From contig JAHEMN010000003.1 in assembly GCA_024643645.1 (NCBI GenBank), forward strand, positions 1,409-65,408: a stretch of 64,000 nucleotides of DNA, given 5' to 3'. Each line of letters opens with the position of its first letter. Positions within the stretch are counted from its first letter, which is position 1. Below the pieces are notes generated by a model. It was given only the letters and a program-made list of their open reading frames with translations, made no database searches and was not told the origin of the DNA. The translations under genes and the position numbers were made by a program. Positions 7,753-30,344 of the stretch are shown here, in pieces. The stretch is from Chitinophagaceae bacterium (GTDB taxonomy: Bacteria; Bacteroidota; Bacteroidia; Chitinophagales; Chitinophagaceae).

Positions 7753-7817
7753 TGACATAAATCATTACAGCCCCTGCAGTTTATCATTAATCTACTTCAG
7801 GCACAACCTTATTTTCG
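7753..7817 (+). promoter_or_regulatory. Tandem Crp/Fnr-like boxes plus -7 element (P1)
   Basis: TGAC-ATAA-ATCA at 7753, TGCA-GTTT-ATCA at 7775, TATTTTCG at 7810. Confidence 0.7.
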
Positions 7818-7833
7818 ATACTTGAACAGATAA

Positions 7834-7971
7834 ATGAATATAGCTATGCCTATTCATAATATTATTATAGCAATACTAAATTCAATAACAGAACCGGATA
7901 AATCAATTATACATATAGTTAATAGAATATCCCTTGAAAACAAGGCAAATGCCATTTTTTATGCTTACTAA
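7834..7971 (+). CDS. Candidate 45-aa small protein
   Basis: ATG 7834 to TAA 7969-7971 directly after P1: MNIAMPIHNIIIAILNSITEPDKSIIHIVNRISLENKANAIFYAY; no family recognised. Confidence 0.3.
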   Translation: MNIAMPIHNIIIAILNSITEPDKSIIHIVNRISLENKANAIFYAY

Positions 7972-7981
7972 TTCAATTACT

Positions 7982-8401
7982 ATGCGTTTAACTATAGATA
8001 CACAGCGGCAGATCAGTGATATTCAAAAAGAATTCAATGAAATTTTCCCATTCTTGAAATTGGAATTTTTTAATAATAAATCTTTCTCCCGAAATAATTT
8101 TACTTCAAGCCAGATCATTCCCCGTAATCGAAAATTAGGCGATAGTCAAAAAGGAATTGAAAATGGGTTTATTGAAATAGAAGAATCAATGAAAGTAAGT
8201 GAACTTGAAAATCTTTTCAGAGATAAATATCGATTAGCGGTACAGGTATTTAGGAAATCAGGAAATCTTTGGCTTGAAACTACAATGACAGATAACTGGT
8301 CACTCTTTCAGCAAAACAAACATGGCAGGGAAATTTCAACTAATAAAGCCATTGATACAGAAACTAAGGACTATGACCTGAACAGAGATGCTGATCATTA
8401 A
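7982..8401 (+). CDS. Conserved-looking hypothetical protein
   Basis: IQKEFNEIFPFLKLEFF and VQVFRKSGNLWLETT blocks; ATG 7982 preferred over TTG 7934. Confidence 0.75.
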   Translation: MRLTIDTQRQISDIQKEFNEIFPFLKLEFFNNKSFSRNNFTSSQIIPRNRKLGDSQKGIENGFIEIEESMKVSELENLFRDKYRLAVQVFRKSGNLWLETTMTDNWSLFQQNKHGREISTNKAIDTETKDYDLNRDADH

Positions 8402-8456
8402 TTATTCAGATCAGTTTTATTATTTGATTTTATATATTTTCAAAATCACAATTGAG

Positions 8457-9512
8457 TTAATACAATAAATGATTTAGTTTTTCTGTATTAATGATTGAAA
8501 TTTTGCCTTCTTTTATTGCTATTAATTTCTCCGATTTAAAATCACTAAGAGTTCTTATCAGGGATTCAGTGGCCGTTCCAACATAATGAGCAAAATCTTC
8601 TCTGGAAATCTCTAATGGCTTGTCTGGATTTTCTGAATTAAATTTTGTCTGAATATCTATTAATGCCTTTGCAACTCTTTTGCGTAAAGAACTATAAGCA
8701 AGGCTCAACAATCTTTCTTCTTTCTCCTTCACATTCTGAGTAATAATCCTGATAAACTTTGCCGCAACATCCATATTGCCATAGATCATACTTAAGAAAT
8801 CATCTTTCGGAATCTGCATAATTTCAGCTTCTTCCATAACTACTGCCGAATCATCATAATTTTTATCTTCAATCAATGCCGGATATCCAATAAAATCTCC
8901 ATCACTAAACAGATCAGTTATATATTCCTTACCATCTTCATGTGTTTTAAACCCCTTCACCTTTCCTTTCACCAGGTAATACAGGTATCGGGGCCTTTTG
9001 CTCTCCTGATAAAGGGTTTGTTTTTTGGAATAGCTTTCAACATCATACTGATCAGATAATTGACTAATAAGCCCCGAATTTTTTACATCTTTAATAAATT
9101 CATTGATCCCATCCTGGGAAGGTGCATATCTGTTATTGAGTATGGCTGCTTTCTTTAATCTTGTTTCAATTCCATTTAACAATTCGATATCCTCAAATGG
9201 TTTTGTAATATAATCGTCAGCTCCCATTTCCATTCCTTTTCTTAAATCACTCCTCTCCGTTTTTGCAGTAAGAAACACAAAAGGAATATTTTCTGTTTCT
9301 TCATTTTTTCGAAGCAGATGCAAAACGCCATAACCATCCAATTCAGGCATCATAATATCACATACAATTACATCGGGCTTCTCTTTCAATGCAACCTCAA
9401 CACCCCTTTTCCCATTTTCTGCAGTAAAAGTTTTATATCCAGCTAATTCAAGAATTTCGGCTGTGTTCTCCCGGATATCCGGGTTGTCATCAATAACTAA
9501 AACAGATTTCAT
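8457..9512 (-). CDS. Response regulator: REC + cNMP-binding fold + Crp/Fnr HTH
   Basis: VIDD...CDIMMP receiver; LYYLVKGKVK beta-barrel; ISREDFAHYVGTATESLIRTLSDF helix-turn-helix. Confidence 0.92.
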   Translation of the reverse strand: MKSVLVIDDNPDIRENTAEILELAGYKTFTAENGKRGVEVALKEKPDVIVCDIMMPELDGYGVLHLLRKNEETENIPFVFLTAKTERSDLRKGMEMGADDYITKPFEDIELLNGIETRLKKAAILNNRYAPSQDGINEFIKDVKNSGLISQLSDQYDVESYSKKQTLYQESKRPRYLYYLVKGKVKGFKTHEDGKEYITDLFSDGDFIGYPALIEDKNYDDSAVVMEEAEIMQIPKDDFLSMIYGNMDVAAKFIRIITQNVKEKEERLLSLAYSSLRKRVAKALIDIQTKFNSENPDKPLEISREDFAHYVGTATESLIRTLSDFKSEKLIAIKEGKISIINTEKLNHLLY

Positions 9513-10747
9513 TTTTTATTTGGTTTAACCGGTACGGTAAAGTTAACTGTAGTTCCCTTATTTAATTCACTTTCTATACTAACTTTTCCACCAATCAGGT
9601 CTATGTACCTTTTTACAATATGCAGGCCAAGTCCAGTACCTTGAATATTTGTTGCATTTGCTGCTCGGAAAAAACTGGAAAAAAGATGTGCTTTATCATC
9701 ATCAGAAATACCTATTCCCTGATCAATAACAGATACAATAATGTTATCCTCTTTCATTTTCCCTTTTATTACAATGGCTTTCTCTTCATCAGAAAACTTA
9801 ACCGCATTGCTTACTAGGTTTATTAATATATTTCTGAACAATTTTTTGTCTGTAAAACCAACCAGATCATTGTTACAGTCCAATTCAAATATTTGCCCTT
9901 TTTTCAAAATAGCTTTCATCTCATCCAACGTTTGTTCGATCAGCTCCTTAATATTTACATTCTCAGTTTCTGCTTCTAATTTTCCTTCGTTTAATTTACC
10001 GAGTGACAAAAAGTCTTCAAGTATATCATTTAAATTATTGACTGAATTTTTTATCCTTTGAATATGTTTATCCCTTTTTACCTGGTCTTCTGCAGTTATA
10101 TATTTTGCCAATAAAGAAGCGGATGAAAATACAGTTGTAAGGGGGGTTCTGAATTCATGAGAAGCCATAGAAACAAAACGACTTTTTATCTCATTAAGCT
10201 GCCGCTCTTTATCTAAAGCTTCACTCAACTCTTCCTGTGACTGTTCCAGCTTTTGCAAAGCTTCTTTTAAGATCAATGTCCTTTCCTCTACTTTAATTTC
10301 AAGATCAGCATTCAGTTGTCTGATCTTTCCTGTTATATTTTCAAGTTCTGCTTTTTGAAGCAGCATACTATTCTCAATTTCTTTTCTTTTAGTAATATCA
10401 ATTACAAAAGCGATCACAAACATTTCACCATCTCTTGTATAATGGCTTAAACTTATTTCCACCGGTAAATCTGAACCATCTTTTTTTCGGCCATGCAGAT
10501 CTCTTCCATGACCCATGGTACGATTGGAGGGTTTTTTATAAAACCCTTCTCTTAATTCATTATGATGTGGTTTGAATTTCTCAGGTATAAGAATTTCAAT
10601 TGGTTTACCTATTAATTCTTCATCAGCATACCCAAACATTTTTCTAACCGCCGGATTAGCCATTACAATAAAACCTTTTCCACTTGTTAGGATTATCCCT
10701 TCAGTTGCATTCTCAAATAAAGAGGTCATATGGGCCTGATCGAGCAT
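9509..10747 (-). CDS. FixL-like PAS sensor histidine kinase
   Basis: PAS with ILIPEKFKPHH and GHGRDLHGRKKDG; H-box SHEFRTPL; N box NLVSNAVKF; G boxes DQGIG and GTGLGL. Confidence 0.92.
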   Translation of the reverse strand: MLDQAHMTSLFENATEGIILTSGKGFIVMANPAVRKMFGYADEELIGKPIEILIPEKFKPHHNELREGFYKKPSNRTMGHGRDLHGRKKDGSDLPVEISLSHYTRDGEMFVIAFVIDITKRKEIENSMLLQKAELENITGKIRQLNADLEIKVEERTLILKEALQKLEQSQEELSEALDKERQLNEIKSRFVSMASHEFRTPLTTVFSSASLLAKYITAEDQVKRDKHIQRIKNSVNNLNDILEDFLSLGKLNEGKLEAETENVNIKELIEQTLDEMKAILKKGQIFELDCNNDLVGFTDKKLFRNILINLVSNAVKFSDEEKAIVIKGKMKEDNIIVSVIDQGIGISDDDKAHLFSSFFRAANATNIQGTGLGLHIVKRYIDLIGGKVSIESELNKGTTVNFTVPVKPNKK

Positions 10748-10866
10748 ACGATTCCGTTAATTTAAGGCTGAAAATAAATTATTATAGGCAAAAAAAAAAG
10801 ACAAGAAAAATCCTGTCACTAAACAGTATTATTTAGCAAAACTACTCTTATTCCGGCTTGCTGATC

Positions 10867-11073
10867 TTAGCTCTTTTTTTTGGCAGAACTAATTCCGAAT
10901 AATGAATAAAGAGGACAAAGACCAAAAAGACTTGTGAGCAAAAATATGGCTGCAACTGCCAGTAAAATATAACCTAAAACTCCGGTTACAGTATTTGTAA
11001 AAAACAAAACTGCAATTAATACAACAATGAGCAACCGAATAATACGATCCGCTCCTGACATATTGATTTTCAT
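10867..11073 (-). CDS. DUF2892 (YgaP-like) small membrane protein
   Basis: NMSGADRIIR...GLCPLYSLFGISS; ATG 11073 lies downstream of promoter P2. Confidence 0.85.
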   Translation of the reverse strand: MKINMSGADRIIRLLIVVLIAVLFFTNTVTGVLGYILLAVAAIFLLTSLFGLCPLYSLFGISSAKKKS

Positions 11074-11092
11074 TTTTATTAATTTTAGTATA

Positions 11093-11157
11093 CGAAGATA
11101 AAAATGCCAATTTGCTGATAGAGTGAGATTTGTCACATTATACCATGACTTACAACT
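11093..11157 (-). promoter_or_regulatory. Tandem Crp/Fnr-like boxes plus -7 element (P2)
   Basis: Minus strand: AGTT-GTAA-GTCA (11157), TGAC-AAAT-CTCA (11135), TATCTTCG (11100). Confidence 0.65.
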
Positions 11158-11179
11158 TAGTAATTCGGGTGTTTAAGAG

Positions 11180-11244
11180 GTAATTTAGTCACTTTCTTAA
11201 CTGACCTCTATCAGTCAATAATAACTTTAACAAGCTTATATTAG
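11180..11244 (+). promoter_or_regulatory. Tandem Crp/Fnr-like boxes plus -7 element (P3)
   Basis: GTAA-TTTA-GTCA at 11180, TGAC-CTCT-ATCA at 11202, TATATTAG at 11237. Confidence 0.65.
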
Positions 11245-11252
11245 ATCATTAA

Positions 11253-12089
11253 ATGATTAACATGAAAACAATAATTGTTCCTACAGACTTCTCACCTATA
11301 GCTCATAATGCCATGAATTATGCAGTAGATATGGCAGTGGCAATTGGTGCTGATATACATTTAATCAATGTGTATAATATTCCTGTCTCATATACTGAAG
11401 TGCCTGTTGTAATGGTTTCAGTAGAAGAATTGAAAAAAAGCAGTGAAACACAATTAATGGAATTGCAGACAAGTATTCTTCATATAACATCAGGAAAAGT
11501 GAAAGTTAAAATTGAGAGTATAATGGGTAATACGGTAGATGAACTTGAAGAAGTTTGTAAAAAAATAAACCCTTTTGCTGTAGTTATGGGAGCAAAAGGG
11601 AAAGGAGCTATTGAAAATTTATTATTTGGCAGTACAACATTAACCGCTTTACGCCATCTTACCTGGCCGGTAATTTGTGTGCCACCCGGAAAAGAATACG
11701 GCACTGGTATCAAAAGAATTGGATTTGCATGTGATTTCAGAGAAGTAGTAGAAACAACTCCGGTAGCATTAATAAAAGATTGGGTTAAAATATTCAATGC
11801 AGAACTTCATATTCTCAATGTTGATTATAAGAATAAAGGTTTTGGCCCAGATACTCCACAAGAAACATATAAAGTGCATGAATTAATGGATGATATTAAT
11901 CCTCACTACCATTTTATTACTTTCCCTGATATAGAAGATGGTATTAATGAGTTCGCAGAAAACAATAATATGGACCTGGTAATAACCATCCCTAAAAAAC
12001 ATAAATTATTAGAAGGGTTATTTAAGCCCAGTAGTACAAAACAATTGGTTTTACATTCTCATGTACCGATCATGTGTGTACATGAGTAA
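11253..12089 (+). CDS. Universal stress protein (tandem USP domains)
   Basis: KTIIVPTDFS, VVMGAKG, LFGSTT; alternative start ATG 11262. Confidence 0.92.
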   Translation: MINMKTIIVPTDFSPIAHNAMNYAVDMAVAIGADIHLINVYNIPVSYTEVPVVMVSVEELKKSSETQLMELQTSILHITSGKVKVKIESIMGNTVDELEEVCKKINPFAVVMGAKGKGAIENLLFGSTTLTALRHLTWPVICVPPGKEYGTGIKRIGFACDFREVVETTPVALIKDWVKIFNAELHILNVDYKNKGFGPDTPQETYKVHELMDDINPHYHFITFPDIEDGINEFAENNNMDLVITIPKKHKLLEGLFKPSSTKQLVLHSHVPIMCVHE

Positions 12090-12105
12090 TAAATAAAGTT
12101 GAAGA

Positions 12106-12855
12106 TCAGGAATTCAATACTTCCTTTTCTATCTCAATAGCACGGGGAAACAAAACCGAATGTTCAAGAAAAGCATGTTGAATTATTTCATTATCTAATT
12201 CTTTCAATTTTGCAAAAACGACTTTATGGCTTACACATGCCTTTTCTGGAGGGCTATAATTACCTGTGAGGCTTCTGATAAGTAAGATAATTTCTGTTAT
12301 TGTATCCTGCCCTCTGAACATTCTTACTTCAAGCGGCTTTCGCAAAGTCTTTACCAATAATGCAGCATATGGCTCTTTATCTTTATGTGCATGTGCAAGA
12401 TGTCTTATGTAAGGAAAGATTACCTCTTCTTCCTGTTGCATTGAATTAATCAATATTTTAACAAGCAATTCAAATTGACTTAGTAGCTCGGACAGGTAAG
12501 CGTATTTTTTTAGATGCTCTTTTGAAAATTCCTGCAATAAACTATGTGACACCCCCAATGATTTTTTAAGATAATTATGATGGATATTCACAATAAAATC
12601 GATAATAAAATCTGTAGTACAATCCGTAAAGTCCAAAGAATTTGATATTGAATTTGTTCGGGTAGCCATCTCCAACTCCTGTTGTAAAATAACAGGATCC
12701 ACCCCATTCATTTGACAAGCCATCTCAATCGGCCATTTACCCCCACAACAATAACCGATACCATACTTGCGAAAAACTTCTGCTGTACGATAATCCTGAG
12801 ATACTACATCTGCTACTAATGACTTTTCATTTATATCAAAAGAGTGTAAAAACAT
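12106..12855 (-). CDS. Ric/ScdA/YtfE-like protein with degenerate di-iron site
   Basis: N-terminal FRKYGIGYCCGG domain and hemerythrin-like domain; two His ligands substituted. Confidence 0.85.
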   Translation of the reverse strand: MFLHSFDINEKSLVADVVSQDYRTAEVFRKYGIGYCCGGKWPIEMACQMNGVDPVILQQELEMATRTNSISNSLDFTDCTTDFIIDFIVNIHHNYLKKSLGVSHSLLQEFSKEHLKKYAYLSELLSQFELLVKILINSMQQEEEVIFPYIRHLAHAHKDKEPYAALLVKTLRKPLEVRMFRGQDTITEIILLIRSLTGNYSPPEKACVSHKVVFAKLKELDNEIIQHAFLEHSVLFPRAIEIEKEVLNS

Positions 12856-12879
12856 TAATTATTTATCACTTGTTAAAAG

Positions 12880-12922
12880 CAAATTAAACCAGACTCGTTT
12901 TTAAAAATCATGATTAAAATCA
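12880..12922 (-). promoter_or_regulatory. Single Crp/Fnr-like box plus -7-like element (P8)
   Basis: TGAT-TAAA-ATCA at 12911-12922; TTAATTTG on minus strand at the same 35-bp offset; distal box poor. Confidence 0.5.
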
Positions 12923-12936
12923 GTTGTTAACATATT

Positions 12937-13377
12937 TTAAATAACTGCAATACTTTTTATAAAATCTGGCTTATCTTTTTTTAATAAATCGTTTATAGTT
13001 GTTGTAGATAGCAGAACCTTCCATTCTTTTCGTAAAGCATCTATCTTATGATGAATTGGGCATGGATTTATTGAATTACATTTTCTAAGTCGTAATACAC
13101 ACATACTAATATCTTCAACTTCACCAGTAATCTCCATCAATTTATAAAGTGTACATCTTGTAGTATTCTTGTTTAAAAAAAAACCGCCAAACGGGCCCTT
13201 CATTGAGTCAACTACTCCTTCCTTTACCAATTTTTTCATCACATTACCTAAAAAATGCCTCGGTATAGTTAATTGCTCTGCAATCTCATCTAATTGAATT
13301 TTAGGCTTTTCACTTGTTTTTAATGCAATGAACAATATTGCCCGCAATGCATATCCAAATGTTTTTGAAAAAATCAT
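12937..13377 (-). CDS. Rrf2 family transcriptional regulator
   Basis: FSKTFGYALRA, SMKGPFGGF wing, C-x6-C-x5-C-x2-H candidate Fe-S ligands; ATG 13377. Confidence 0.92.
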   Translation of the reverse strand: MIFSKTFGYALRAILFIALKTSEKPKIQLDEIAEQLTIPRHFLGNVMKKLVKEGVVDSMKGPFGGFFLNKNTTRCTLYKLMEITGEVEDISMCVLRLRKCNSINPCPIHHKIDALRKEWKVLLSTTTINDLLKKDKPDFIKSIAVI

Positions 13378-13411
13378 ATACAAACATGCTCATCTGTATT
13401 GAAAATCAGGC

Positions 13412-13476
13412 TGATTAATATCATTTATTTCTTTGATGATAGTCATGGCCATTAAAAACATGTGCCAATACTTTTG
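13412..13476 (+). promoter_or_regulatory. Tandem Crp/Fnr-like boxes plus -7 element upstream of nos operon (P4)
   Basis: TGAT-TAAT-ATCA at 13412, TGAT-GATA-GTCA at 13434, TACTTTTG at 13469. Confidence 0.8.
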
Positions 13477-13481
13477 AAAAA

Positions 13482-13503
13482 TAAAAGACATCGATGTCTT
13501 TTA
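13482..13503. promoter_or_regulatory. Perfect 22-bp palindrome, candidate Rrf2 operator
   Basis: TAAAAGACATCGATGTCTTTTA immediately after the -7 element of P4. Confidence 0.65.
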
Positions 13504-13526
13504 ATCAATCATCAAAATAAATAAAC

Positions 13527-13997
13527 ATGAAACTTGCCAACTTATGTACTGCATTAGCATTTGCATTTAGCCTTGTTTTTATTTCCTGTAAAGAAGGGGT
13601 AAAAAAAGACGAAAAACCAATTGATGTACAGGAATTAACAAAGGATCAACCTGAAACTCATGGTACTGAACTAAAAGAAAGTGATATCACATTAAGTACT
13701 CCTTTGGATCAAACAATGGTAAGCACTGGTAAAGGCATTTATGAATTAAAATGCCAGTCTTGCCATAAACTAACTGAAGAAAAATTAGTAGGCCCTGGTT
13801 GGAAAGATGTAACAAAAACCCGGAAGCCGCTATGGATTATGAATATGATTACTAATGTCGATATGATGTTGGCATCTGATCCTGAAGCGCAAAAATTGCT
13901 TGAACAATGTTTAGTTCGTATGCCTAATCAAAATATTACAACCGAAGATGCAAGAAATGTAGTTGAGTTTATGCGTAATAACGACGGAGAAAAATAG
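13527..13997 (+). CDS. Monoheme cytochrome c lipoprotein (nos-associated)
   Basis: Lipobox FISC, CQSCH heme motif, RMPNQ candidate Met ligand. Confidence 0.9.
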   Translation: MKLANLCTALAFAFSLVFISCKEGVKKDEKPIDVQELTKDQPETHGTELKESDITLSTPLDQTMVSTGKGIYELKCQSCHKLTEEKLVGPGWKDVTKTRKPLWIMNMITNVDMMLASDPEAQKLLEQCLVRMPNQNITTEDARNVVEFMRNNDGEK

Positions 13998-14024
13998 TAT
14001 CACTAAACATATAAATTAAAATTT

Positions 14025-16019
14025 ATGAAAATCTTCCAACCAAAAAACTTGCAATACCTCCTTATTGCAGTTTTTGCATTTTTCTTCCTAGAAAGTTGCA
14101 AACCGAAAGGAGCACAATCCGCTGCTGGCGGAGATGCATCAAAAGCTTATGTAGCGCCAGGTAAATATGATGAGTTTTACAATTTTGTATCCGGTGGTTT
14201 CAGCGGACAAATGTCTGTTTATGGATTACCATCCGGTAGATTATTAAGGGTTATTCCGGTTTTTTCAACTGACCCTGAAAAAGGTTGGGGTTTTAGTGAA
14301 GAAACAAAACCGATGTTGAACACATCACATGGGTTTGTACCCTGGGATGACGCCCATCATCCTGAAATGTCGCAGACCAATGGAGAAGTGGATGGACGCT
14401 GGGTATTTATCAATGGAAATAATACTCCACGTATAGCAAGAATTGATCTGAAAACATTCCGCACAGCAGAAATATTAGAAATTCCAAATAGTGCTGGTAA
14501 TCACTCTTCTGCTTTTGTTACACAAAATACAGAGTATGTTGTAGCGGGAACCCGTTTCAGTATTCCACTGGATAATATGAATGGAGATGTTCCAATTGAT
14601 AGTTACAAACAAAATTTTAAAGGAACTGTCAGTTTTATAAAAGTAGATTCTACAGATGGTAATATGAAAATTGCATTCCAGATTCGAACACCAGGTGTAA
14701 ACTTTGACCTAAGCCATGCCGGCAAAGGGAATAGTCATGGATGGTTCTTCTTCTCATGCTATAATTCTGAACAAGCTAATACTTTATTAGAAGTAAATGC
14801 ATCGCAAAGAGATAAAGATTTTATCATGGCAGTGAATTGGAAAAAAGCAGAGGAATATTTAAAAGCAGGTAAGGGAACAAAGCAGTCTGTTCGTTATGCT
14901 CATAATAAATACAGCGATATTAATCATAGTGCAACATCAACTATAGAAACAGAAGTGACTGTTTTAGATGCTAAAGAGTTAGCGGAAATGGTATACTTAA
15001 TTCCATGCCCTAAGTCTCCACATGGTTGTGATGTAGACCCTACTGGTGAATATATTGTTGGTAGTGGTAAATTAGCAGCTTTGATGCCGGTATATTCATT
15101 CACTAAGCTACAAAAAGCTATTGCAGATAAAGCATTCGATGGAGATTATGAAGGGATTCCTGTTATAAAGTATGAAGCAGCTTTGCATGGTGAAGTACAG
15201 AAACCAGGCTTGGGCCCTCTACACACAGAATTTGATGGAAATGGAAATGCTTATACATCCATGTTTGTTTCTTCTGAAATAGTAAAATGGAATGTAAAAA
15301 GTCTTCAGGTTTTAGACAGGGTACCTACTTATTACTCAATCGGTCACTTATGTGTACCTGGTGGTGATAGCAGAAAACCTTTTGGTAAATATGTTATTGC
15401 TTATAACAAAATCACTAAGGACAGATATTTGCCAACCGGACCTGAATTAACTCAAAGTGCTCAACTTTATGATATCAGTGGTGACAAAATGAAGCTCATA
15501 CTTGACTTCCCTACTATTGGAGAACCACACTATGCCCAAGCTGCACCGGCTGAATTGATTAATAAAAATTCAGTAAAGTTTTTCAAAATTGAAGAAAGTC
15601 AACATCCTTATGTTGCTAAAGGTGAAGGACAAGCCAATATTATAAGAGAAGGAAATAAAGTACATATTAAAATGACTTCCATCCGATCTCATTTTAATCC
15701 AGATAATATTGAAGGTATTAAAGTTGGCGACGAAGTATATTTCCATGTAACTAATCTTGAACAAGACTGGGATGTGCCACATGGATTTTCTATTAAAGGT
15801 GCTAACAATGCTGAATTGCTTATTATGCCAGGAGAAACCCAGACTTTAAAATGGCTGCCTGAAAAAGCAGGGATGTTCCCATTTTATTGCACTGACTTCT
15901 GTTCTGCACTTCATCAGGAAATGCAGGGATATATAAGAGTTTCACCATCAGGTAGCAGTGTCCCACTTTCATTTGGAACAGGTAGAAAACCAACACCATC
16001 CGCGGCAAAAGAACCATAA
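14025..16019 (+). CDS. nosZ: Clade II (Sec-dependent) nitrous-oxide reductase
   Basis: No twin-Arg motif, lipobox LESC; CuZ His motifs DAHH, GNHS, PHG, GPLH, EPH; CuA motif CTDFCSALHQEM. Confidence 0.97.
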   Translation: MKIFQPKNLQYLLIAVFAFFFLESCKPKGAQSAAGGDASKAYVAPGKYDEFYNFVSGGFSGQMSVYGLPSGRLLRVIPVFSTDPEKGWGFSEETKPMLNTSHGFVPWDDAHHPEMSQTNGEVDGRWVFINGNNTPRIARIDLKTFRTAEILEIPNSAGNHSSAFVTQNTEYVVAGTRFSIPLDNMNGDVPIDSYKQNFKGTVSFIKVDSTDGNMKIAFQIRTPGVNFDLSHAGKGNSHGWFFFSCYNSEQANTLLEVNASQRDKDFIMAVNWKKAEEYLKAGKGTKQSVRYAHNKYSDINHSATSTIETEVTVLDAKELAEMVYLIPCPKSPHGCDVDPTGEYIVGSGKLAALMPVYSFTKLQKAIADKAFDGDYEGIPVIKYEAALHGEVQKPGLGPLHTEFDGNGNAYTSMFVSSEIVKWNVKSLQVLDRVPTYYSIGHLCVPGGDSRKPFGKYVIAYNKITKDRYLPTGPELTQSAQLYDISGDKMKLILDFPTIGEPHYAQAAPAELINKNSVKFFKIEESQHPYVAKGEGQANIIREGNKVHIKMTSIRSHFNPDNIEGIKVGDEVYFHVTNLEQDWDVPHGFSIKGANNAELLIMPGETQTLKWLPEKAGMFPFYCTDFCSALHQEMQGYIRVSPSGSSVPLSFGTGRKPTPSAAKEP

Positions 16020-16030
16020 AAATAAACAAT

Positions 16031-16061
16031 ATGAACTCCTCTTCAATAAAGAGGAGTTCAT
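16031..16061 (+). other. Intra-operon stem-loop after nosZ
   Basis: ATGAACTCCTCT-7nt-AGAGGAGTTCAT, no T-tract. Confidence 0.6.
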
Positions 16062-16101
16062 TACCAATTAGCATCTCATATAAAAACTAAAACTGTTTGA
16101 T

Positions 16102-16671: not shown

Positions 16672-16699
16672 GTCTGAAAAGACTTCTTCATTTTAAACT

Positions 16700-21351: not shown

Positions 21352-21416
21352 TGATAATAATCAGTTTGGCTATTGAAATTACTCATATCCATCCTTATAT
21401 GCCGGCTCTATTTTAG
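21352..21416 (+). promoter_or_regulatory. Tandem Crp/Fnr-like boxes plus -7 element upstream of ccoI (P5)
   Basis: TGAT-AATA-ATCA at 21352, TGAA-ATTA-CTCA at 21374, TATTTTAG at 21409. Confidence 0.78.
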
Positions 21417-21436
21417 CCGCTTATATTCCGCTTTTT

Positions 21437-23830: not shown

Positions 23831-23856
23831 GCCTGTAGTTTACAGCTCCCTCAAGC

Positions 23857-23921
23857 TGATAAAAATCAGTTTTTCCCCTGATACTGCTTATACTAACCCG
23901 GAAGAGGTAAAAATACTTTTA
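23857..23921 (+). promoter_or_regulatory. Tandem Crp/Fnr-like boxes plus -7 element upstream of ccoS-ccoNO (P6)
   Basis: TGAT-AAAA-ATCA at 23857, TGAT-ACTG-CTTA at 23879, TACTTTTA at 23914. Confidence 0.75.
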
Positions 23922-23939
23922 CTGCTATAATATATCAGA

Positions 23940-24107
23940 ATGAGTGTAATTATTATCCTACTGGTTGCCAGCATCTCAGTAGCAGCTATTTTTTTAGTTG
24001 CCTTTCTTTGGGGTGTTAGATCCGGCCAGTTCGAAGACGATTACTCCCCTTCTTCCCGAATTCTTTTTGACGATAAGCCTTCTTCATCAACCAAAACAAA
24101 TAAATAA
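23940..24107 (+). CDS. ccoS: cbb3 oxidase assembly protein CcoS (55 aa, absent from ORF track)
   Basis: Hand translation MSVIIILLVASISVAAIFLVAFLWGVRSGQFEDDYSPSSRILFDD. Confidence 0.9.
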   Translation: MSVIIILLVASISVAAIFLVAFLWGVRSGQFEDDYSPSSRILFDDKPSSSTKTNK

Positions 24108-24115
24108 TCTCTGTT

Positions 24116-26272
24116 ATGCAAGAAACAAATCAAGGCATGCAAATTGAAAAATTTTATTACGATAATAAAATTGTAAAAGCCTTTGGATATGCTACTGTCA
24201 TTTTTGGTATTGTTGGCATGATAGTAGGTTTATGGGTAGCTATCCAGTTCTATTATCCCGATAGCAGCCTCAATTTTGCAGCTACTACATTTGGGCGTTT
24301 AAGACCATTGCATACCAATGCTATCATTTTTGCATTTGTAGGTAATGCTTCATTTGCCGGTATTTATTATTCTTTACAGCGTTTGTGTAAAGCAAGAATG
24401 TTCAGTGACAAACTGGGCTGGGTACATTTCTGGGGCTGGCAATTAATTATTGTTGGTGCCGCTATCACCTTGCCATTAGGGCTTAATAATGGTGCTGAAT
24501 ATGCAGAGTTGATCTGGCCAATTGACATCGCAATTGCATTAGTATGGGTCATATTCGGTATCAATATGTTTGGCACAATTCTAAAAAGAAGAGAAAAACA
24601 TTTATACGTTGCAATATGGTTTTATATTGCTACCTGGGTTACCGTTGCTTTATTACATATTGTCCGCTCTGTAGAATTACCTTATTCACTCACTGGTAGT
24701 TATAGTTGGTATGCCGGTGTACAAGATGCATTGGTACAATGGTGGTATGGTCATAATGCTGTAGCATTTTTCCTTACTACACCTGTTTTAGGATTGATGT
24801 ATTATTTCCTTCCTAAAGCTGCAAACAGACCCGTTTATTCATATCGTCTTTCTATTATTCACTTTTGGGCGTTGATATTTATTTACATATGGGCTGGCCC
24901 TCACCATTTACTATATACAGCTTTACCTGACTGGGCACAATCACTTGGTGTTGTATTTTCTATTATGTTGATTGCCCCTAGCTGGGGTGGAATGCTGAAT
25001 GGATTATTTACACTACGTGGCGCATGGGACAAAGTAAGAGAAGATCCTGTTTTAAAATTTATGGTAGTAGCCATTACCTGTTATGGCATGAGTACTTTAG
25101 AAGGTCCCCTTATGAGTTTGAAAAGTGTAAATGCTGTGGCTCACTTTAGCGACTGGATCGTAGCACATGTTCATATCGGCGGTTTGGGATGGAATGGCTT
25201 CATGGCATTCTCTATACTATATTATATGATTCCTAAAATGTGGGGTACTAATTTATATTCAAAAAAATTAGCTACTAATCACTTTTGGCTGGGCACAATA
25301 GGAATTATTATCTATGCAGTTCCATTGTATTGGGCAGGATTTGAACAAAGTATTATGTGGAAACAGTTTACTCCCGAAGGACAATTGAAATTCGACTTCC
25401 TGCAAACTGTTACCAATATTCGACCTATGTATATAGCCCGGAGTATTGGTGGCACATTATACCTGATTGGTGCTTTCATAATGACATATAACCTTTATAA
25501 GACTATAAGACAGGGTAAATTCATAGCAAATGAAGCAGCTGAAGCTGCGCCATTAATTAAAGAGGTATCTAAGAAAAAAGAATACTGGCACAGGGTAATT
25601 GAAAGAAAACCATTGACCATGTTGGTCTTAAGTCTTGTATTAGTGGCAATAGGTGGATTAGTACAAATGATTCCGACATTCCTTGTAAAATCAAATGTGC
25701 CGACACTGGCCAGTGTAAAGCCTTATACACCTTTGGAATTGCAAGGCAGGGATATATATGTACGGGAAGGATGTTACACTTGTCATTCCCAAATGATAAG
25801 ACCATTTAGGGATGAAGTAGCCCGCTATGGAGAATACTCAAAAGCAGGTGAGTTTGTTTACGATCATCCTTTCCAATGGGGAAGCAAACGGACTGGCCCG
25901 GATTTGGCAAGAGAAGGAGCAAATAAAAATAAAAGACCAGACTCCTGGCATTTCAATCATATGTATGATCCAACATCTACATCTCCAGGATCACTAATGC
26001 CAAGATATATCTGGTTACTTGATAATAAACTGGATACAAATTCAACACCTGCAAAAATAAGAGCTATGCAAACCTTAGGGGTTCCGTATCCGGAAGGATA
26101 TGACAAAATAGCTAATCAGAAACTGATGGAGCAAGCAGAGGCAATTACTGCCAATCTAAAAAAAGAAAAAATAGAAACAGCATCAGACGCTGAGATCATT
26201 GCTGTTATCGCTTACTTACAACGATTAGGAAAGGATATAGAGAATGAACCCAAACCTATTACAAAACAATAA
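24116..26272 (+). CDS. ccoNO: Fused cbb3 cytochrome c oxidase subunits I and II
   Basis: LRPLHTN, WWYGHN, WAGPHH, HVHIG; C-terminal CYTCH and WGSKRTGPDL. Confidence 0.97.
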   Translation: MQETNQGMQIEKFYYDNKIVKAFGYATVIFGIVGMIVGLWVAIQFYYPDSSLNFAATTFGRLRPLHTNAIIFAFVGNASFAGIYYSLQRLCKARMFSDKLGWVHFWGWQLIIVGAAITLPLGLNNGAEYAELIWPIDIAIALVWVIFGINMFGTILKRREKHLYVAIWFYIATWVTVALLHIVRSVELPYSLTGSYSWYAGVQDALVQWWYGHNAVAFFLTTPVLGLMYYFLPKAANRPVYSYRLSIIHFWALIFIYIWAGPHHLLYTALPDWAQSLGVVFSIMLIAPSWGGMLNGLFTLRGAWDKVREDPVLKFMVVAITCYGMSTLEGPLMSLKSVNAVAHFSDWIVAHVHIGGLGWNGFMAFSILYYMIPKMWGTNLYSKKLATNHFWLGTIGIIIYAVPLYWAGFEQSIMWKQFTPEGQLKFDFLQTVTNIRPMYIARSIGGTLYLIGAFIMTYNLYKTIRQGKFIANEAAEAAPLIKEVSKKKEYWHRVIERKPLTMLVLSLVLVAIGGLVQMIPTFLVKSNVPTLASVKPYTPLELQGRDIYVREGCYTCHSQMIRPFRDEVARYGEYSKAGEFVYDHPFQWGSKRTGPDLAREGANKNKRPDSWHFNHMYDPTSTSPGSLMPRYIWLLDNKLDTNSTPAKIRAMQTLGVPYPEGYDKIANQKLMEQAEAITANLKKEKIETASDAEIIAVIAYLQRLGKDIENEPKPITKQ

Positions 26273-26287
26273 TAAAATCAACCTATA

Positions 26288-26467
26288 ATGAAATTTATTA
26301 ATTATATCGAAAAAGTAAGTGGGGTTGATATCATGGGTTTACTATCCCTTTTGATCTTCTTTTTATTTTTTGTAGTAATGCTCATTTGGGTGTTTAAAAC
26401 AAAGAAAAAAGATTTTAATGATGTAAGCCGTATACCATTAGATAATCAGAATTCAACTAACCTGTAA
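26288..26467 (+). CDS. ccoQ: cbb3 oxidase subunit CcoQ (59 aa, absent from ORF track)
   Basis: Hand translation MKFINYIEKVSGVDIMGLLSLLIFFLFFVVMLIWVF...IPLD; stop overlaps ccoP start (TAATG). Confidence 0.88.
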   Translation: MKFINYIEKVSGVDIMGLLSLLIFFLFFVVMLIWVFKTKKKDFNDVSRIPLDNQNSTNL

Positions 26468-27648
26468 TGTTTATACATATGCGAAAGATATCAAAATACA
26501 TATTCAGCTTGTTGTTCATATTTTTTGTAGCAACGATACAGTCTGCCTGGGCTGATGGGCCTCCTGCGCCTTCAATCATAGATAATTCACTTGCAATAAT
26601 GCTCTTTATTTTAATGTTGCTATTAATGATTGTGATTGGCATACTTGGAAATATCTTAATTGGCGTTGCAGATATCAATGCAAAAAAGAGAAAAAATGAA
26701 AAGAAAATAAGTAACACAGTTATCAGTGGAATATTGCTAATTATGTTGATGATATCTCCTGAAATTTTTGCACAAAATGTAATAGCAGAAACTGCAGTAA
26801 AGAAATCGAGTACAATTGGTGGAATGGATGCCTCTGCATTTTACATAATGATCATTGTCATATTCGCTGAGCTATTAATAATTCTTGCCTTACTTGTCAA
26901 TATCAAACTATTGATCAGAAAAGAAAAATTAAAAATAGTTGCTGAAGAAGAGACTGCTGTAGTAAAAGAAGAAAAAGCCAATAGACTCAGTTGGTGGGAC
27001 AGATTCAACAGACTACGCCCGGTTACGGAAGAAGCAGAATTGGATCTTGGACATGAATATGATGGAATAAGGGAATTAAATAACAGACTTCCACCATGGT
27101 GGTTATACGGCTTTTACCTTTGTATTATTTTTGCAATAGTTTATATGTGGCGTTTTCATGTATCTCATTCGGGACCTTCCAGTGCACAGGAATATGAAAA
27201 TTCAGTAGCAAAAGCAGAAATAAGAATTCAAAATTACCTCAAATTGAAAGGAGAATTGGTTGATGAAAACACAGTAACATTACTTACCAGTGAAGAAGAT
27301 CTTGCCGCAGGTAAAGCGATTTTTATGAATCCATCAAATTGCCCTGCGTGTCATAATGCTGATGGTGGAGGAAATGCAGTGGGACCAAACCTTACCGATG
27401 ACTATTGGCTTTATGGAGGCAGTGTAAAAGATATTTTCAAAACCATCAAGTATGGAACGAACAAAGGAATGAGAAGCTGGAAAGATGATTTATCAGCCAA
27501 ACAAATAGCACAGGTTTCCAGTTATGTAAAATCACTTCAGGGAACAAAGCCTGCTAATCCAAAAGAGGCTCAAGGAGAATTGTACAAGGAAGAGTTAACT
27601 CCTGCACCTGTTAAAGATTCAACAATTGTAGCGCCTGAAACAAAATAG
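26467..27648 (+). CDS. ccoP: cbb3 oxidase subunit III with long hydrophobic N-terminus
   Basis: HEYDGIRELNNRLPPWW, single CPACH heme motif, GPNLTD. Confidence 0.93.
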   Translation: MFIHMRKISKYIFSLLFIFFVATIQSAWADGPPAPSIIDNSLAIMLFILMLLLMIVIGILGNILIGVADINAKKRKNEKKISNTVISGILLIMLMISPEIFAQNVIAETAVKKSSTIGGMDASAFYIMIIVIFAELLIILALLVNIKLLIRKEKLKIVAEEETAVVKEEKANRLSWWDRFNRLRPVTEEAELDLGHEYDGIRELNNRLPPWWLYGFYLCIIFAIVYMWRFHVSHSGPSSAQEYENSVAKAEIRIQNYLKLKGELVDENTVTLLTSEEDLAAGKAIFMNPSNCPACHNADGGGNAVGPNLTDDYWLYGGSVKDIFKTIKYGTNKGMRSWKDDLSAKQIAQVSSYVKSLQGTKPANPKEAQGELYKEELTPAPVKDSTIVAPETK

Positions 27649-27672: not shown

Positions 27673-29109
27673 GTGATGACTGAAACAAAAACACAAGTTG
27701 AACAAACTGAATCCTTTCGTGACAGGATAGCAACTGTAGATGCAAAAGGAAAAAGGAAATGGGTATTTGCACAAAAACCCAAAGGGAGATTTTATAATAT
27801 CCGTACAATAGTTAGTCTTGGTTTTTTTGCTTTATTTTTTACTTTGCCGTTTTTAAAGTTCAATGGAAGGCCACTATTTTTATTTAATATCCCGGAAGCC
27901 AAGTTCATCATTTTTGGGAAAATATTCTGGCCACAGGATTTTTTCATCTTCGGCCTCACAATGGTCACTTTCATTATTTTCATTGTCCTTTTTACTGCAG
28001 CATTCGGAAGGCTTTTTTGCGGATGGGTATGTCCCCAAACCATTTTTATGGAAATGCTGTTTCGTAAAGTGGAATATTTGATAGAAGGAGATGCGGCCAA
28101 ACAAAAATTATTGAAAGCCTCACCATGGACCGGAGAAAAAATAAGAAAAAAAACTACCAAGCATACGGTATTTTTTATTCTGGCCTTTATTATCGCAAAT
28201 TTCTTTCTTGCCTATATTATTGGCATTGATGAACTGAAGAAAATAATAAGTGAGCCTGTTAGCCAGCACATGATAGGGTTTCTTTCTTTACTACTTTTCT
28301 CTGGAATTTTTTATGGCGTATATGCTTCCTTTCGTGAGCAAGTGTGTACTGTTGTTTGCCCTTATGGCAGATTACAAAGTGTATTACTTGATAGAAATTC
28401 TATGCTGGTTGCTTATGATTATAAAAGAGGGGAGCCAAGAGATAAGTATAAAAAAAATGCAGCGCCGGAATTAAATACCGGCGATTGTATTGATTGCTTT
28501 CAGTGTGTAAAAGTATGTCCAACAGGAATTGACATTCGAAATGGCACACAAATGGAATGTGTAGGTTGTACTGCCTGTATTGATGCTTGTGATAAAATGA
28601 TGGTAGCTGTTAACAGGCCAAAAGGGTTGATTCGATATGCTTCAGAGAGTGGAATATCTGAAGGAAAAAAATTACGGTATACAGGAAGAATGAAATTTTA
28701 TACATTCCTGCTAATTATATTATCTGGTATTCTTACATTATTATTATTGAGCCGAAAAGATATTGATGGTACGATTCTACGTACCAAGGGGTTAACTTAC
28801 CAGGAAAGAGGCACTGACAGTCTTTCTAATTTATTTAATATTAAAGTCATCAATAAGACAATAAAAGACATGCCTGTTACATTAAGACTTGAAGGTGAAG
28901 CACTGAATACCGGAAAAATAGAACTAGTTGGAGCAACAGATATTCATCTTAAACAAGAAGATCAGGCTACTGGTTCTTTTTTTGTAGTGCTACCAAGAAG
29001 CTTTGTTACAAAAAGAAAAATGAAAATCAGCATTGGTTTATATAATGGTGAGAAAAAAATAACCGCTCTTAATACAAATTTCACTGGGCCTTTCACCAGA
29101 AACAATTAA
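27673..29109 (+). CDS. ccoG: CcoG/FixG 4Fe-4S accessory protein
   Basis: CGWVCPQT, CPYGR, CIDCFQCVKVCP, CVGCTACIDAC. Confidence 0.95.
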   Translation: MMTETKTQVEQTESFRDRIATVDAKGKRKWVFAQKPKGRFYNIRTIVSLGFFALFFTLPFLKFNGRPLFLFNIPEAKFIIFGKIFWPQDFFIFGLTMVTFIIFIVLFTAAFGRLFCGWVCPQTIFMEMLFRKVEYLIEGDAAKQKLLKASPWTGEKIRKKTTKHTVFFILAFIIANFFLAYIIGIDELKKIISEPVSQHMIGFLSLLLFSGIFYGVYASFREQVCTVVCPYGRLQSVLLDRNSMLVAYDYKRGEPRDKYKKNAAPELNTGDCIDCFQCVKVCPTGIDIRNGTQMECVGCTACIDACDKMMVAVNRPKGLIRYASESGISEGKKLRYTGRMKFYTFLLIILSGILTLLLLSRKDIDGTILRTKGLTYQERGTDSLSNLFNIKVINKTIKDMPVTLRLEGEALNTGKIELVGATDIHLKQEDQATGSFFVVLPRSFVTKRKMKISIGLYNGEKKITALNTNFTGPFTRNN

Positions 29110-29121
29110 TAAAAATAAATT

Positions 29122-29559
29122 ATGAATTGGGGTAATAAGCTTTTAATAACATTTATCGTCTTTGCTATTGGCATGGCATATTTAGTATACCGATCAGTAA
29201 CAACCAATTTTGAATTAGTCGAAAATGATTATTACAAGCAAGAAATAGGTTACCAGCAGGTTATAGATGGAACTCTACAAGCAAATCAATTATCTTCTTC
29301 CATTCAGTTTCAGCAAACAGACAATGGCATCATTGTGCAACTACCTGATGAAATGAAGAATAAAACATTATCCGGAGAAATATGGTTTTATTGTGCCTAT
29401 GATCAAAAGAAAGACATAAAGATTTTGCTAGAAACCAATAAAGATGCAACACAGATTTTGGAAGCTGGTAAAATAAAACCTGGTAATTATACAGTTAAGA
29501 TAAATTGGGAAGATGATATCAATAAATATTATAGCGAAAAAAGCTTAACCGTTTTATAA
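29122..29559 (+). CDS. ccoH: FixH/CcoH family protein
   Basis: MNWG plus N-terminal helix and DYYKQE motif; follows ccoG. Confidence 0.85.
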   Translation: MNWGNKLLITFIVFAIGMAYLVYRSVTTNFELVENDYYKQEIGYQQVIDGTLQANQLSSSIQFQQTDNGIIVQLPDEMKNKTLSGEIWFYCAYDQKKDIKILLETNKDATQILEAGKIKPGNYTVKINWEDDINKYYSEKSLTVL

Positions 29560-30272
29560 TGCTATTACCGGTATTAATATCAGGGTTTACATTAGGCGCT
29601 GCTGGTAGTCTGCATTGTGTGGGTATGTGCGGGCCTTTAAGTCTTGCATTACCAGTTCATCAATTAACCGGAATTAAAAAATTCTTCTCTTTACTATTTT
29701 ATCAAATTGGAAGAATCGTTACATATTCAATTATCGGATTATTATTTGGATTAGCGGGTAGAAGAATCTATATATCGGGATACCAACAATCGTTTTCCAT
29801 TATAATGGGAATCGTTGTACTTTCTTTAGCTACTTTATATTTCTTTAGGAAAAGAACAATTCATCTTTCATTCATGAACCGTTTTTATGTTATGGTTCAA
29901 AATATAATTATCAGGCTCATCAAATCGGTCAATAATTCGTTCAGCTTCTTCCTGATGGGTTTGGCCAATGGATTATTACCCTGTGGAATGGTATATATTG
30001 CTATTGCTGCAACATTATCTCTATCAACTGTAACAGAAAGTGTAAGTTTTATGGCGATGTTTGGCGCCGGAACATTACCTGCAATGATGCTGATTGGCTA
30101 TGCCGGTCAAATGATAAAACCCGAATACAGAAGTTTTTTCAGAAAGCTTGTGCCTGTATTTATTACTCTGATGGGTATCGTTTTGATATTAAGAGGAATG
30201 AACCTGGGTATTCCTTATATCAGTCCTGAATTACCGATATCTCCCGGTGATGTAATTGAATGTCATCCATAA
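29559..30272 (+). CDS. TauE/SafE-like (DsbD_2) membrane protein of cbb3 clusters
   Basis: HCVGMCG and LLPCG motifs, multiple hydrophobic helices. Confidence 0.88.
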   Translation: MLLPVLISGFTLGAAGSLHCVGMCGPLSLALPVHQLTGIKKFFSLLFYQIGRIVTYSIIGLLFGLAGRRIYISGYQQSFSIIMGIVVLSLATLYFFRKRTIHLSFMNRFYVMVQNIIIRLIKSVNNSFSFFLMGLANGLLPCGMVYIAIAATLSLSTVTESVSFMAMFGAGTLPAMMLIGYAGQMIKPEYRSFFRKLVPVFITLMGIVLILRGMNLGIPYISPELPISPGDVIECHP

Positions 30273-30279
30273 AATAAAT

Positions 30280-30344
30280 TGACCATTCTCATTTAAAATT
30301 CTGATGAACATCAACATTTCATCATTTCATCAACGTTACTTTTA
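30280..30344 (+). promoter_or_regulatory. Tandem Crp/Fnr-like boxes plus -7 element with no downstream CDS (P7)
   Basis: TGAC-CATT-CTCA at 30280, TGAT-GAAC-ATCA at 30302, TACTTTTA at 30337. Confidence 0.72.

Follow-up and report, generated by a model that had tools for sequence, protein, structure and literature searches.

Paired Crp/Fnr-type boxes at a fixed 22-bp spacing mark the promoters of a probable low-oxygen regulon of nos and cco genes in Chitinophagaceae

The regulation of nos genes outside the Proteobacteria has been noted as a gap (PMC6264515). What, then, reads the repeated pattern that precedes the nos and cco genes of a Chitinophagaceae bacterium? The stretch of DNA analysed here, which we call the window (64,000 nucleotides; assembly GCA_024643645.1, contig JAHEMN010000003.1, positions 1,409 to 65,408, forward strand), contains between its positions 7753 and 30344 seven sites at which two palindromic boxes are followed by a -7 element. 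An earlier note on this DNA had claimed that the seven share one exact architecture, that Crp/Fnr-type proteins bound near -41.5 and -63.5 activate them together, and that they define a low-oxygen regulon. The cis-regulatory grammar and the regulon are well supported, and the seven sites probably make up one low-oxygen regulon of sigma-A promoters that depend on an activator and are read by a regulator that joins a receiver to a Crp-type DNA-binding module (REC-Crp) and is paired with a FixL-like kinase.

The promoters and their targets are given below, together with one single-box site; bits are scores of a position weight matrix (PWM) of 67 columns, trained on other genomes only.

Promoter 1, 7753-7817 (+): box 1 TGACATAAATCA at 7753-7764, box 2 TGCAGTTTATCA at 7775-7786, -7 element TATTTTCG at 7810-7817; 29.6 bits; target, a 139-aa conserved hypothetical protein, 7982-8401 (+).
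Promoter 2, 11093-11157 (-): distal half-box AGTTGTAAGTCA at 11157-11146, proximal box TGACAAATCTCA at 11135-11124, -7 element TATCTTCG at 11100-11093; target, a DUF2892/YgaP-like gene, 11073-10867 (-), and possibly, by read-through, the kinase and regulator genes.
Promoter 3, 11180-11244 (+): distal half-box GTAATTTAGTCA at 11180-11191, proximal box TGACCTCTATCA at 11202-11213, -7 element TATATTAG at 11237-11244; target, a tandem universal stress protein (USP) gene, 11253-12089.
Single-box promoter, 12880-12922 (-): box TGATTTTAATCA at 12922-12911, -7-like elements TTAATTTG and TAATTTGC 35 and 36 bp downstream; target, a RIC/ScdA di-iron protein gene, 12855-12106 (-).
Promoter 4, 13381-13476, bidirectional: boxes TGATTAATATCA at 13412-13423 and TGATGATAGTCA at 13434-13445.
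Promoter 4, plus side: -7 element TACTTTTG at 13469-13476; 39.3 bits; targets, cytochrome c, nosZ, nosLDFY and a second RIC gene, 13527-21297.
Promoter 4, minus side: weak -7 element CATGTTTG at 13388-13381; 15.0 bits; target, an Rrf2 regulator gene, 13377-12937.
Promoter 5, 21352-21416 (+): boxes TGATAATAATCA and TGAAATTACTCA, -7 element TATTTTAG; 33.0 bits; target, ccoI (P-type Cu ATPase), 21437-23830.
Promoter 6, 23857-23921 (+): boxes TGATAAAAATCA and TGATACTGCTTA, -7 element TACTTTTA; 41.6 bits; targets, ccoS at 23940-24107, a fused ccoNO at 24116-26272, ccoP, ccoG, ccoH and DsbD_2 (to 30272).
Promoter 7, 30280-30344 (+): boxes TGACCATTCTCA and TGATGAACATCA, -7 element TACTTTTA; 27.4 bits; target, a small RNA, 30349-30436.

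Read directly from the sequence, all seven triplets of box 1, box 2 and -7 element lie where they had been placed, including the minus-strand set at 11157/11135/11100, and in every one the two boxes are 22 bp apart and the -7 element follows box 2 by 35 bp. The description of the boxes as TGAY-N4-RTCA holds as far as the Crp/Fnr palindrome is concerned and is slightly too strict at the Y and R positions, which are A or C in several boxes; the invariant core is TGA-N6-TCA. Two full cores are present at 13412, 21352 and 30280 and in the reverse reading from 13445, while the core matches number 6+5 at 7753 and 23857 and 4+6 at 11157 (-) and 11180 (+). The eighth, single-box case at 12911 is real and is oriented on the minus strand, toward the RIC gene at 12106-12855; its partner position has only three of six core matches. 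The boxes at 13412/13434 do serve the nos genes, to which they had been assigned, but they also serve the divergent Rrf2 gene, which had been missed. Within the 64-kb window there are no further intergenic sites outside 7753-30344, and box-plus-(-7) matches at 37248, 49027, 50481 and 58449, which lie inside open reading frames (ORFs) and have no partner box, were judged to be chance.

The arrangement is far from random. Distances from a full box to TAnnTTnR in the window peak at 35 bp (five cases) and 57 bp (six cases), with each other distance between 12 and 99 bp occurring at most twice. The pattern of the earlier note has eight matches in the window (the seven sites and a reverse reading at 11124), against 0.065 on average and never more than 2 in 200 first-order Markov shuffles of the window; the pattern is thus not as frequent in shuffled DNA, and the full architecture stands about 120-fold above it. 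Five of the window sites score 27-42 bits with the PWM, the best score per shuffle averaging 6.5 and never exceeding 19.5 in 100 shuffles, and the weak sites at 11157 (-) and 11180 (+) score low.

The architecture was compared among relatives through the gene for the candidate regulator, which lies with that of its kinase between promoters 1 and 2:

Regulator, 8457-9512 (-): 351 aa, receiver domain (REC), cyclic-nucleotide (cNMP)-binding-like barrel and Crp-type helix-turn-helix (HTH).
Sensor kinase, 9509-10747 (-): 412 aa, haem-PAS domain (FixL/DosP-like), HisKA and HATPase; overlaps the regulator gene by 4 nt.

The comparison set consists of 80 loci, one per species and 1.22 Mb in total, fetched around regulator homologues at 56-90% identity; they span the Chitinophagaceae, Flavisolibacter, Puia, Sediminibacterium, Segetibacter, Flavihumibacter, the Cyclobacteriaceae and others, with about 20 kb seen around the regulator, and they were thus chosen through the regulator itself. 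Pairs of full boxes at exactly 22 bp occur 91 times in these loci, and any other spacing from 1 to 100 bp at most four times; a -7 element follows a box by 35 bp in 117 cases and by 57 bp in 143, with a background of about 3-4. When sites with at least 10 of 12 core matches and a TAnnTT are counted, there are 174 at a spacing of 22 bp versus 0-14 at spacings of 18-26 bp, and the -7 distance among such relaxed sites is 35 bp (174), 34 bp (13) or 36 bp (22). Promoters with one full box have at least four of six matches at the partner position in 84-85% of cases, versus 5-7% at control offsets. Pairing of the boxes is therefore the rule, and the architecture and gene set are conserved across the Chitinophagaceae and neighbouring families.

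The logo of the related promoters reads (C/A)TGAY-A-w-w-ATCA(T), 10 bp, TGAYnnnnRTCA(T), 23 bp, TAnTTTTG, with no -33 TTG motif; at the flanks of the distal box a T precedes TGA in 9% and an A follows TCA in 14%. A third box at -85.5 was considered and rejected, being absent from the logo. In about 19 cases among the 80 loci a single pair of palindromic boxes is shared symmetrically by two divergent promoters, so that the proximal and distal roles swap. No rule emerged for which half of an imperfect box survives: box 1 is mixed, and box 2 mostly retains the promoter-side TCA.

The divergent region between the DUF2892 and USP genes (11124-11213) contains four boxes, which are full at 11124 and 11202 and half at 11146 and 11180. 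Across relatives each distal box keeps just the half that faces its proximal box, giving three half-sites per promoter. Blastn with the orthologous intergenic DNA of five relatives found nothing alignable, and in a gene-anchored MAFFT alignment most of the five keep the full proximal box and one half-site 22 bp away. For promoter 2 the proximal box and inner half-site are kept in loci L002, L004, L005 and L066, and for promoter 3 the proximal box and the inner (A)ATCA half-site in L001, L004, L005 and L066. Because these elements are kept in flanks that are otherwise unalignable, we accept the weak sites at 11157 (-) and 11180 (+). The reverse reading at 11124 (+) was rejected, its TAATTTAG not being kept in relatives.

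Promoter 7 drives a small RNA and not a protein gene, a point missed in the earlier note. The next gene, trmD, starts only at 30493, beyond the terminator of a candidate small RNA:

Candidate small RNA, 30349-30436 (+): about 88 nt, with hairpin 1 at 30364-30381, single-stranded TTGTTGGTTTTTGTTTCAAT, and a terminator at 30406-30429 followed by a T-run.

The hairpin, the invariant TTGTTGGTTTTTGTTTCAAT and the terminator indicate a conserved small RNA rather than trmD as the target, and the RNA folds with a minimum free energy of -33 kcal/mol (z -6.25). Two homologous copies lie behind perfect tandem boxes in other loci (L007, 4911-5028 (-), and L010, 5345-5465 (-)), and a covariance model (CM) was built from the three. 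It found no further copies in the 80 regulator loci, and it confirms about 24 strong copies, 33 in total, in metagenome contigs fetched solely by an 18-nt seed (for example L102, L133, L106, L095, L101 and L100). Tandem boxes are present upstream of 23 of the 31 CM-confirmed copies that have enough upstream DNA, against none of 46 seed-only matches. The small RNA loci are therefore an independent confirmation of the paired-box architecture, and the small RNA is a new member of the regulon. With the tandem matrix at a threshold of 15 bits or more, sites occur at 3.3 per Mb in unrelated metagenome DNA, 194 per Mb around the regulator and 262 per Mb in the loci fetched through the small RNA.

Members of this small RNA family are about 90-120 nt long and consist of a covarying 5' hairpin, an invariant single strand (T/C)GTTGGTTTT(T/C)GTTTCAAT and a covarying terminator; in the two hairpins 91% of cells are paired, versus 37-54% when the partners are slid. 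The RNA invariably adjoins nos or cco genes, lying between RIC2 and ccoI, after DsbD_2, or before trmD. No Rfam family, FnrS included, reaches its gathering score anywhere in the window, and by analogy the RNA is a candidate functional counterpart of FnrS in the Bacteroidota. Its seed region (30382-30402) is complementary at 13 of 14 positions to the first codons of ccoG (27676-27692), the best match in the window; complementarity to the ccoG start is likewise the best in L137 (duplex -19.4 kcal/mol) and L104 and is absent in L100 and L133, making ccoG a weak lead as a possible target.

How the boxes might act depends on where transcription starts. Placing the -7 element at -12 to -5, the position of the sigma-A box TAnnTTTG in Flavobacterium psychrophilum (PMC9723704), puts box 2 at -47 to -36 (centre -41.5) and box 1 at -69 to -58 (centre -63.5). 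In several relatives the start codons of the Rrf2 gene and ccoI lie 3-8 nt past the -7 element, so that the start site cannot lie further downstream than that and would be about 4-5 nt past the element, and those Rrf2 and ccoI mRNAs are leaderless. The Flavobacterium position and the nearly leaderless start codons both support the proposed centres near -41.5 and -63.5. The Rrf2 mRNA of the window is apparently leaderless too, its ATG at 13377 lying only 3 nt past the weak -7 element CATGTTTG; among relatives the Rrf2 start codon follows a proper TAnnTTTG by 4-22 nt in 10 of 11 cases. The leader of the hypothetical protein gene at 7982-8401 is unusually long in the window, at about 160 nt. All seven sites have the -7 element (TAnnTTnR) and none has a -33 element, as expected where an activator substitutes for it. 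With the start site placed from the -7 box and the start codons, the layout appears to be that of Crp/Fnr-dependent class II promoters with an added class I position.

The same positions could be read by two dimers acting independently, a class II dimer at -41.5 and a class I dimer at -63.5 contacting the C-terminal domain of the RNA polymerase alpha subunit (alpha-CTD), as at class III promoters of E. coli. The centres match class II and roughly match class I, and single-box promoters do exist (12911 here and about 15% in relatives). However, the spacing does not vary from 22 bp, cases of 21, 23, 32 or 33 bp being almost absent, while flexible alpha-CTD contacts usually tolerate other helical phasings, and the lone half-sites at the partner position and the pairing of weak with strong boxes suggest cooperative binding; we regard independent dimers as rather doubtful. 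The 22-bp spacing is about the footprint of one Crp dimer, and it is this invariance, with the lone half-sites and the weak-strong pairing, that favours direct dimer-dimer contact.

The genes behind the boxes fit a low-oxygen regulon, as had been proposed, both in their functions (cbb3 oxidase, ccoI/ccoS, hemN, USP and nos) and in the FixL-like haem-PAS kinase that adjoins them; cbb3, hemN, USP, Hsp20 and nos-type genes make up the classical low-oxygen set of FixK, FNR and DosR. In relatives the genes found behind tandem boxes are ccoI (20), ccoNO (19), cytochrome c/nosZ (21), RIC (18), Rrf2 (11), USP (9) and the hypothetical protein of promoter 1 (8), and further members include hemN (10) and Hsp20 (8) as well as YceI-like, hemerythrin-like, cytochrome c and other genes. 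Rrf2 and cytochrome c/nosZ share one divergent box pair in at least 10 loci, and RIC, kinase and regulator genes are often co-directional behind one tandem-box promoter. In the window, NosZ is of the Sec-dependent clade II type (TIGR04246, 948 bits), CcoS scores above the cut-off of TIGR00847, the Rrf2 regulator is NsrR/IscR-like, and the RIC/ScdA protein at 12106-12855 has TIGR03652 as its best NCBIfam match, at a score under the curated cut-off. The hypothetical protein at 7982-8401 has no Pfam or NCBIfam match and no PDB fold match with E < 0.01; its AlphaFold model (predicted local distance difference test, pLDDT, 79.7) has two beta-alpha-rich halves, and its family (139-146 aa) comprises 915 homologues and adjoins the regulator in about 35 of the 80 loci.

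The candidate regulator is the sole Crp-family ORF in the 64-kb window. It matches Pfam families PF00072 (5.8e-29), PF00027 (2e-19), PF13545 (4e-13) and PF00325 (1.6e-5), the last three above their cut-offs, and its residues from about 157 to 347 match PDB structures that include 2gau, CAP and FNR-type regulators; no PDB chain spans both halves, and no NCBIfam model passes its cut-off. The earlier note had pointed to this protein, which does have a Crp-type HTH, as the one to test for binding, and missed that it is a REC hybrid, with an input that would be phosphorylation and not an Fe-S cluster or cAMP. By its domains it belongs both to the Crp/Fnr superfamily and to the two-component response regulators. 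Its receiver is closest to those of the OmpR/PhoB type, which dimerise on phosphorylation and would make a plausible link from one dimer to the next. The 12 orthologues show no variation at D8/D9, D52, T82 and K104 or in the recognition helix TATESLIRTLS. Helix residues E316 and R320 (T-E-S-L-I-R) align with what we take to be the residues that read the TGA half-site, E181/R185 of CRP and E209/R213 of FNR; the position of FNR Ser212 is presumably occupied by Ile, in keeping with boxes that have no flanking T.

The regulator appears to be neither CRP proper nor FNR proper. The cAMP contacts of CRP are presumably replaced (consensus GDFIGY...NYDDSA versus GDFIGE...QERSA in CRP, with R82 changed to D and E72 to Y), and the N-terminus is a receiver, with one invariant Cys (C51) and no Cys cluster of the FNR type. 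Without cAMP contacts and the Cys cluster, the receiver must be the input. Homologues number in the thousands and are labelled merely 'response regulator' of Chitinophagaceae. In nearly every related locus the gene is linked to cco, nos, RIC, USP and the hypothetical protein gene. In 14 of the 80 loci the regulator gene and ccoI diverge, and the kinase gene lies at the far end of the cco operon (including L024, L029, L035, L043, L045, L049-L051, L056, L058 and L059, around 9900-10000); we do not claim a tandem-box promoter for the regulator gene in this arrangement, where it lies 60-90 bp from the boxes with -7-like elements at variable distance.

The kinase gene lies directly upstream of the regulator gene in 60 of the 80 loci. 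Among solved structures, the PAS domain of the kinase is closest to the haem domains of FixL, 1d06 (E 9e-18) and 1dp6 (2e-15), and to DosP (1e-14). The proximal His aligns with H194 of RmFixL and H200 of BjFixL and is at least 95% conserved in 57 orthologues, and the distal Arg equivalent to R220 of BjFixL is kept (GhgRdlhG versus GigRivtG). At the level of the PAS domain the kinase thus has the features of a FixL-type sensor and is predicted to bind haem.

Several points weigh against reading the sites as a low-oxygen regulon controlled by this pair. The link between regulator and motif rests on proximity, as judged from 64 kb here and from loci picked via the regulator, and Chitinophagaceae genomes usually carry many Crp/Fnr paralogues. 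The contigs fetched through the small RNA have tandem boxes and are mostly without the regulator, most of them being short or ending near the cluster. On the sensor side, R206 of BjFixL is not conserved at the aligned PAS position, the kinase scores 119 bits with the rhizobial FixL model NF041777 sens_FixL_Rhizob, whose cut-off is 850, and NO, CO and redox state are further signals that haem-PAS domains can convey. Between the DUF2892 and kinase genes stands a terminator-like hairpin (10817-10800, minus strand, followed by T10), which makes read-through from the DUF2892 promoter, and with it autoregulation, uncertain; the kinase-regulator pair may have a separate promoter instead of autoregulating through promoter 2. 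Three metatranscriptomes from the same sample gave, against 7500-27400, nothing but a few short stretches of 90-95% identity that belong to other organisms; among public runs the window sequence was found only in sediment DNA runs.

These points leave room for a different reader of the boxes, such as an Fe-S FNR-like or an NO-sensing Dnr/NnrR/HcpR-like paralogue, with a different or narrower role for REC-Crp. The view of the genome is limited to 64 kb, a plain Crp-family ORF (24% identity) adjoins RIC2 in the small RNA contig L120, and RIC and the Rrf2/NsrR-like regulator are NO-related targets. Against this, no other Crp-family ORF is present in the window, tandem boxes lie within 10 kb of REC-Crp in 80 of 80 loci at about 60 times the background density, REC-Crp is physically linked to cco, nos, RIC, USP and the hypothetical gene almost throughout, and its recognition helix is invariant among the relatives that share the motif. 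We therefore consider another paralogue improbable and infer that REC-Crp binds the boxes.

The wiring could also be as proposed with NO, CO or redox state as the signal, so that the genes would form a nitrosative-stress or denitrification regulon. Two RIC genes, the NsrR-like Rrf2 regulator and nos are all in the regulon, and both the Arg206 difference and the capacity of haem-PAS sensors to bind several gases would suit such a signal. But the most widely kept targets are the high-affinity cbb3 oxidase, ccoI/ccoS, hemN, USP and Hsp20, which are those of the classical set, and the nearest solved PAS domains are those of the O2 sensors FixL and DosP, whose proximal His and Arg220 equivalent are retained. 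A signal other than O2 is, in our judgement, distinctly unlikely.

It is scarcely credible that the boxes bind a repressor, or that they arose as matches by chance in the AT-rich DNA between genes, for although TGA-N6-TCA is a low-information core (42 in the window versus 28.5 +/- 6 expected by chance), chance is refuted by the excess of the architecture over shuffles and by its rigid retention in unalignable flanks, and repression is at odds with the lack of a -33 element, with a proximal box at the class II activator position and with targets that known Crp/Fnr oxygen regulators induce rather than repress.

If REC-Crp and its kinase do control the seven promoters, the circuit may work as follows. 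At low O2 the kinase would phosphorylate the receiver of the hybrid regulator, after which two regulator dimers would bind the adjoining boxes cooperatively and form a dimer of dimers, in which the phosphorylated receivers might serve as a bridge. The proximal dimer would replace the missing -33 contact and recruit RNA polymerase in the manner of a class II activator. The output would be the cbb3 oxidase with its assembly genes, the clade II N2O reductase, RIC, Rrf2, USP, DUF2892, the hypothetical protein and the small RNA. In effect a single kinase and a single protein, FixJ-like in its receiver and FixK-like in its output, would do the work of the rhizobial FixL to FixJ to FixK cascade. The full proposal, in which an uncharacterised class of REC-Crp proteins senses O2 through a FixL-like kinase, binds 22-bp-spaced boxes as a tetramer, fires divergently, and in a single step controls clade II nos, cbb3, hemN and a trans-acting small RNA, is plausible, and we advance it tentatively.

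Of the closest known systems, FixL-FixJ-FixK(2) of rhizobia and Caulobacter shares a haem-PAS kinase, a Crp/Fnr output without Fe-S cluster or cAMP pocket, and TGA-N6-TCA near -41.5. The targets are also alike, namely cbb3 (fixNOQP/ccoNOQP), fixGHIS/ccoGHIS, hemN, nos, USP and small heat-shock genes; FixK2 reportedly activates nos (PMC5582078). Unlike in that system, the window has no FixJ-type protein (REC with a GerE/LuxR HTH) and no separate fixK; receiver and Crp/Fnr module are one polypeptide, with one step fewer. The host belongs to the Bacteroidota, with promoters of the -7/-33 type, and the kinase falls under the rhizobial FixL equivalog cut-off. Whereas FNR and FixK boxes are TTGA-N6-TCAA with flanking T and A, the boxes here lack those flanks and come in obligatory pairs at 22 bp. 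The circuit thus appears to work like FixL-FixJ-FixK without being a member of that system.

In the well-known FNR- and CRP-dependent class II and III promoters of E. coli, a palindromic site at -41.5 likewise takes the place of the upstream promoter element, and another site further upstream faces roughly the same side of the helix. The upstream site is variable there, whereas here it is fixed 22 bp upstream in more than 90% of about 170 promoters; the frequent divergent use of both boxes and an activator with a receiver domain are further differences. DosS/DosT-DosR of Mycobacterium also combines a haem kinase with a response regulator and a hypoxia regulon in which genes for USP and alpha-crystallin (Hsp20) proteins abound, but DosS and DosT bind haem in GAF and not PAS domains, and DosR has a NarL/GerE-type output and another motif. 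The small RNAs FnrS and AniS resemble the one described here in being short and terminator-ended, with a conserved single-stranded seed and a promoter bearing the box of the oxygen regulator; there is no sequence or Rfam relationship, the promoter here has tandem boxes, and the host phylum lacks Shine-Dalgarno-led translation. Other Bacteroidota Crp/Fnr proteins (MalR-like and HcpR) share the barrel and HTH superfamily and are not known to have a receiver or a link to paired boxes. In a PNA-microbiome meta-regulon study the Bacteroidota homologues are MalR-like, with no mention of a receiver domain or tandem sites (PMC8510549). In our literature search neither the REC-Crp fusion, nor the paired boxes, nor the small RNA turned out to have been described, an absence that is not proof.

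Two further gene groups in the window deserve mention. Between nosZ and nosL (16102-17330, +) are genes for a fasciclin-domain protein and a 196-aa protein without a family match, and this pair keeps the same position in most related nos clusters. A signalling gene cluster at 39678-54055 has no connection to the boxes; it includes a 2075-aa ORF (39678-45905) and at least four further receiver-like ORFs (45924-46307, 50390-51130, 52632-53675 and 53672-54046).

Non-denitrifying Bacteroidota with clade II NosZ count among the major candidates as sinks of N2O, a greenhouse gas, and the findings supply a testable circuit for them: sensor, regulator, operator grammar, regulon and small RNA. The system is present in the cultured relatives Sediminibacterium magnilacihabitans DSM 22423 (L020), Segetibacter aerophilus NBRC 106135 (L046), Flavihumibacter cheonanensis WS16 (L056) and Flaviaesturariibacter aridisoli (L031), and the 65-bp matrix, at about three matches per Mb of background, is specific enough for regulon annotation in metagenomes. 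A natural fusion of a receiver with a Crp/Fnr module joins two of the best-studied signalling modules; its rigid two-site operator could reveal how a receiver controls a Crp-type dimer, and may illustrate class II activation with the unusual sigma-A of the Bacteroidota. If the proposed circuit is true, the regulator would be a master switch for the timing of N2O consumption in abundant soil and sediment bacteria.

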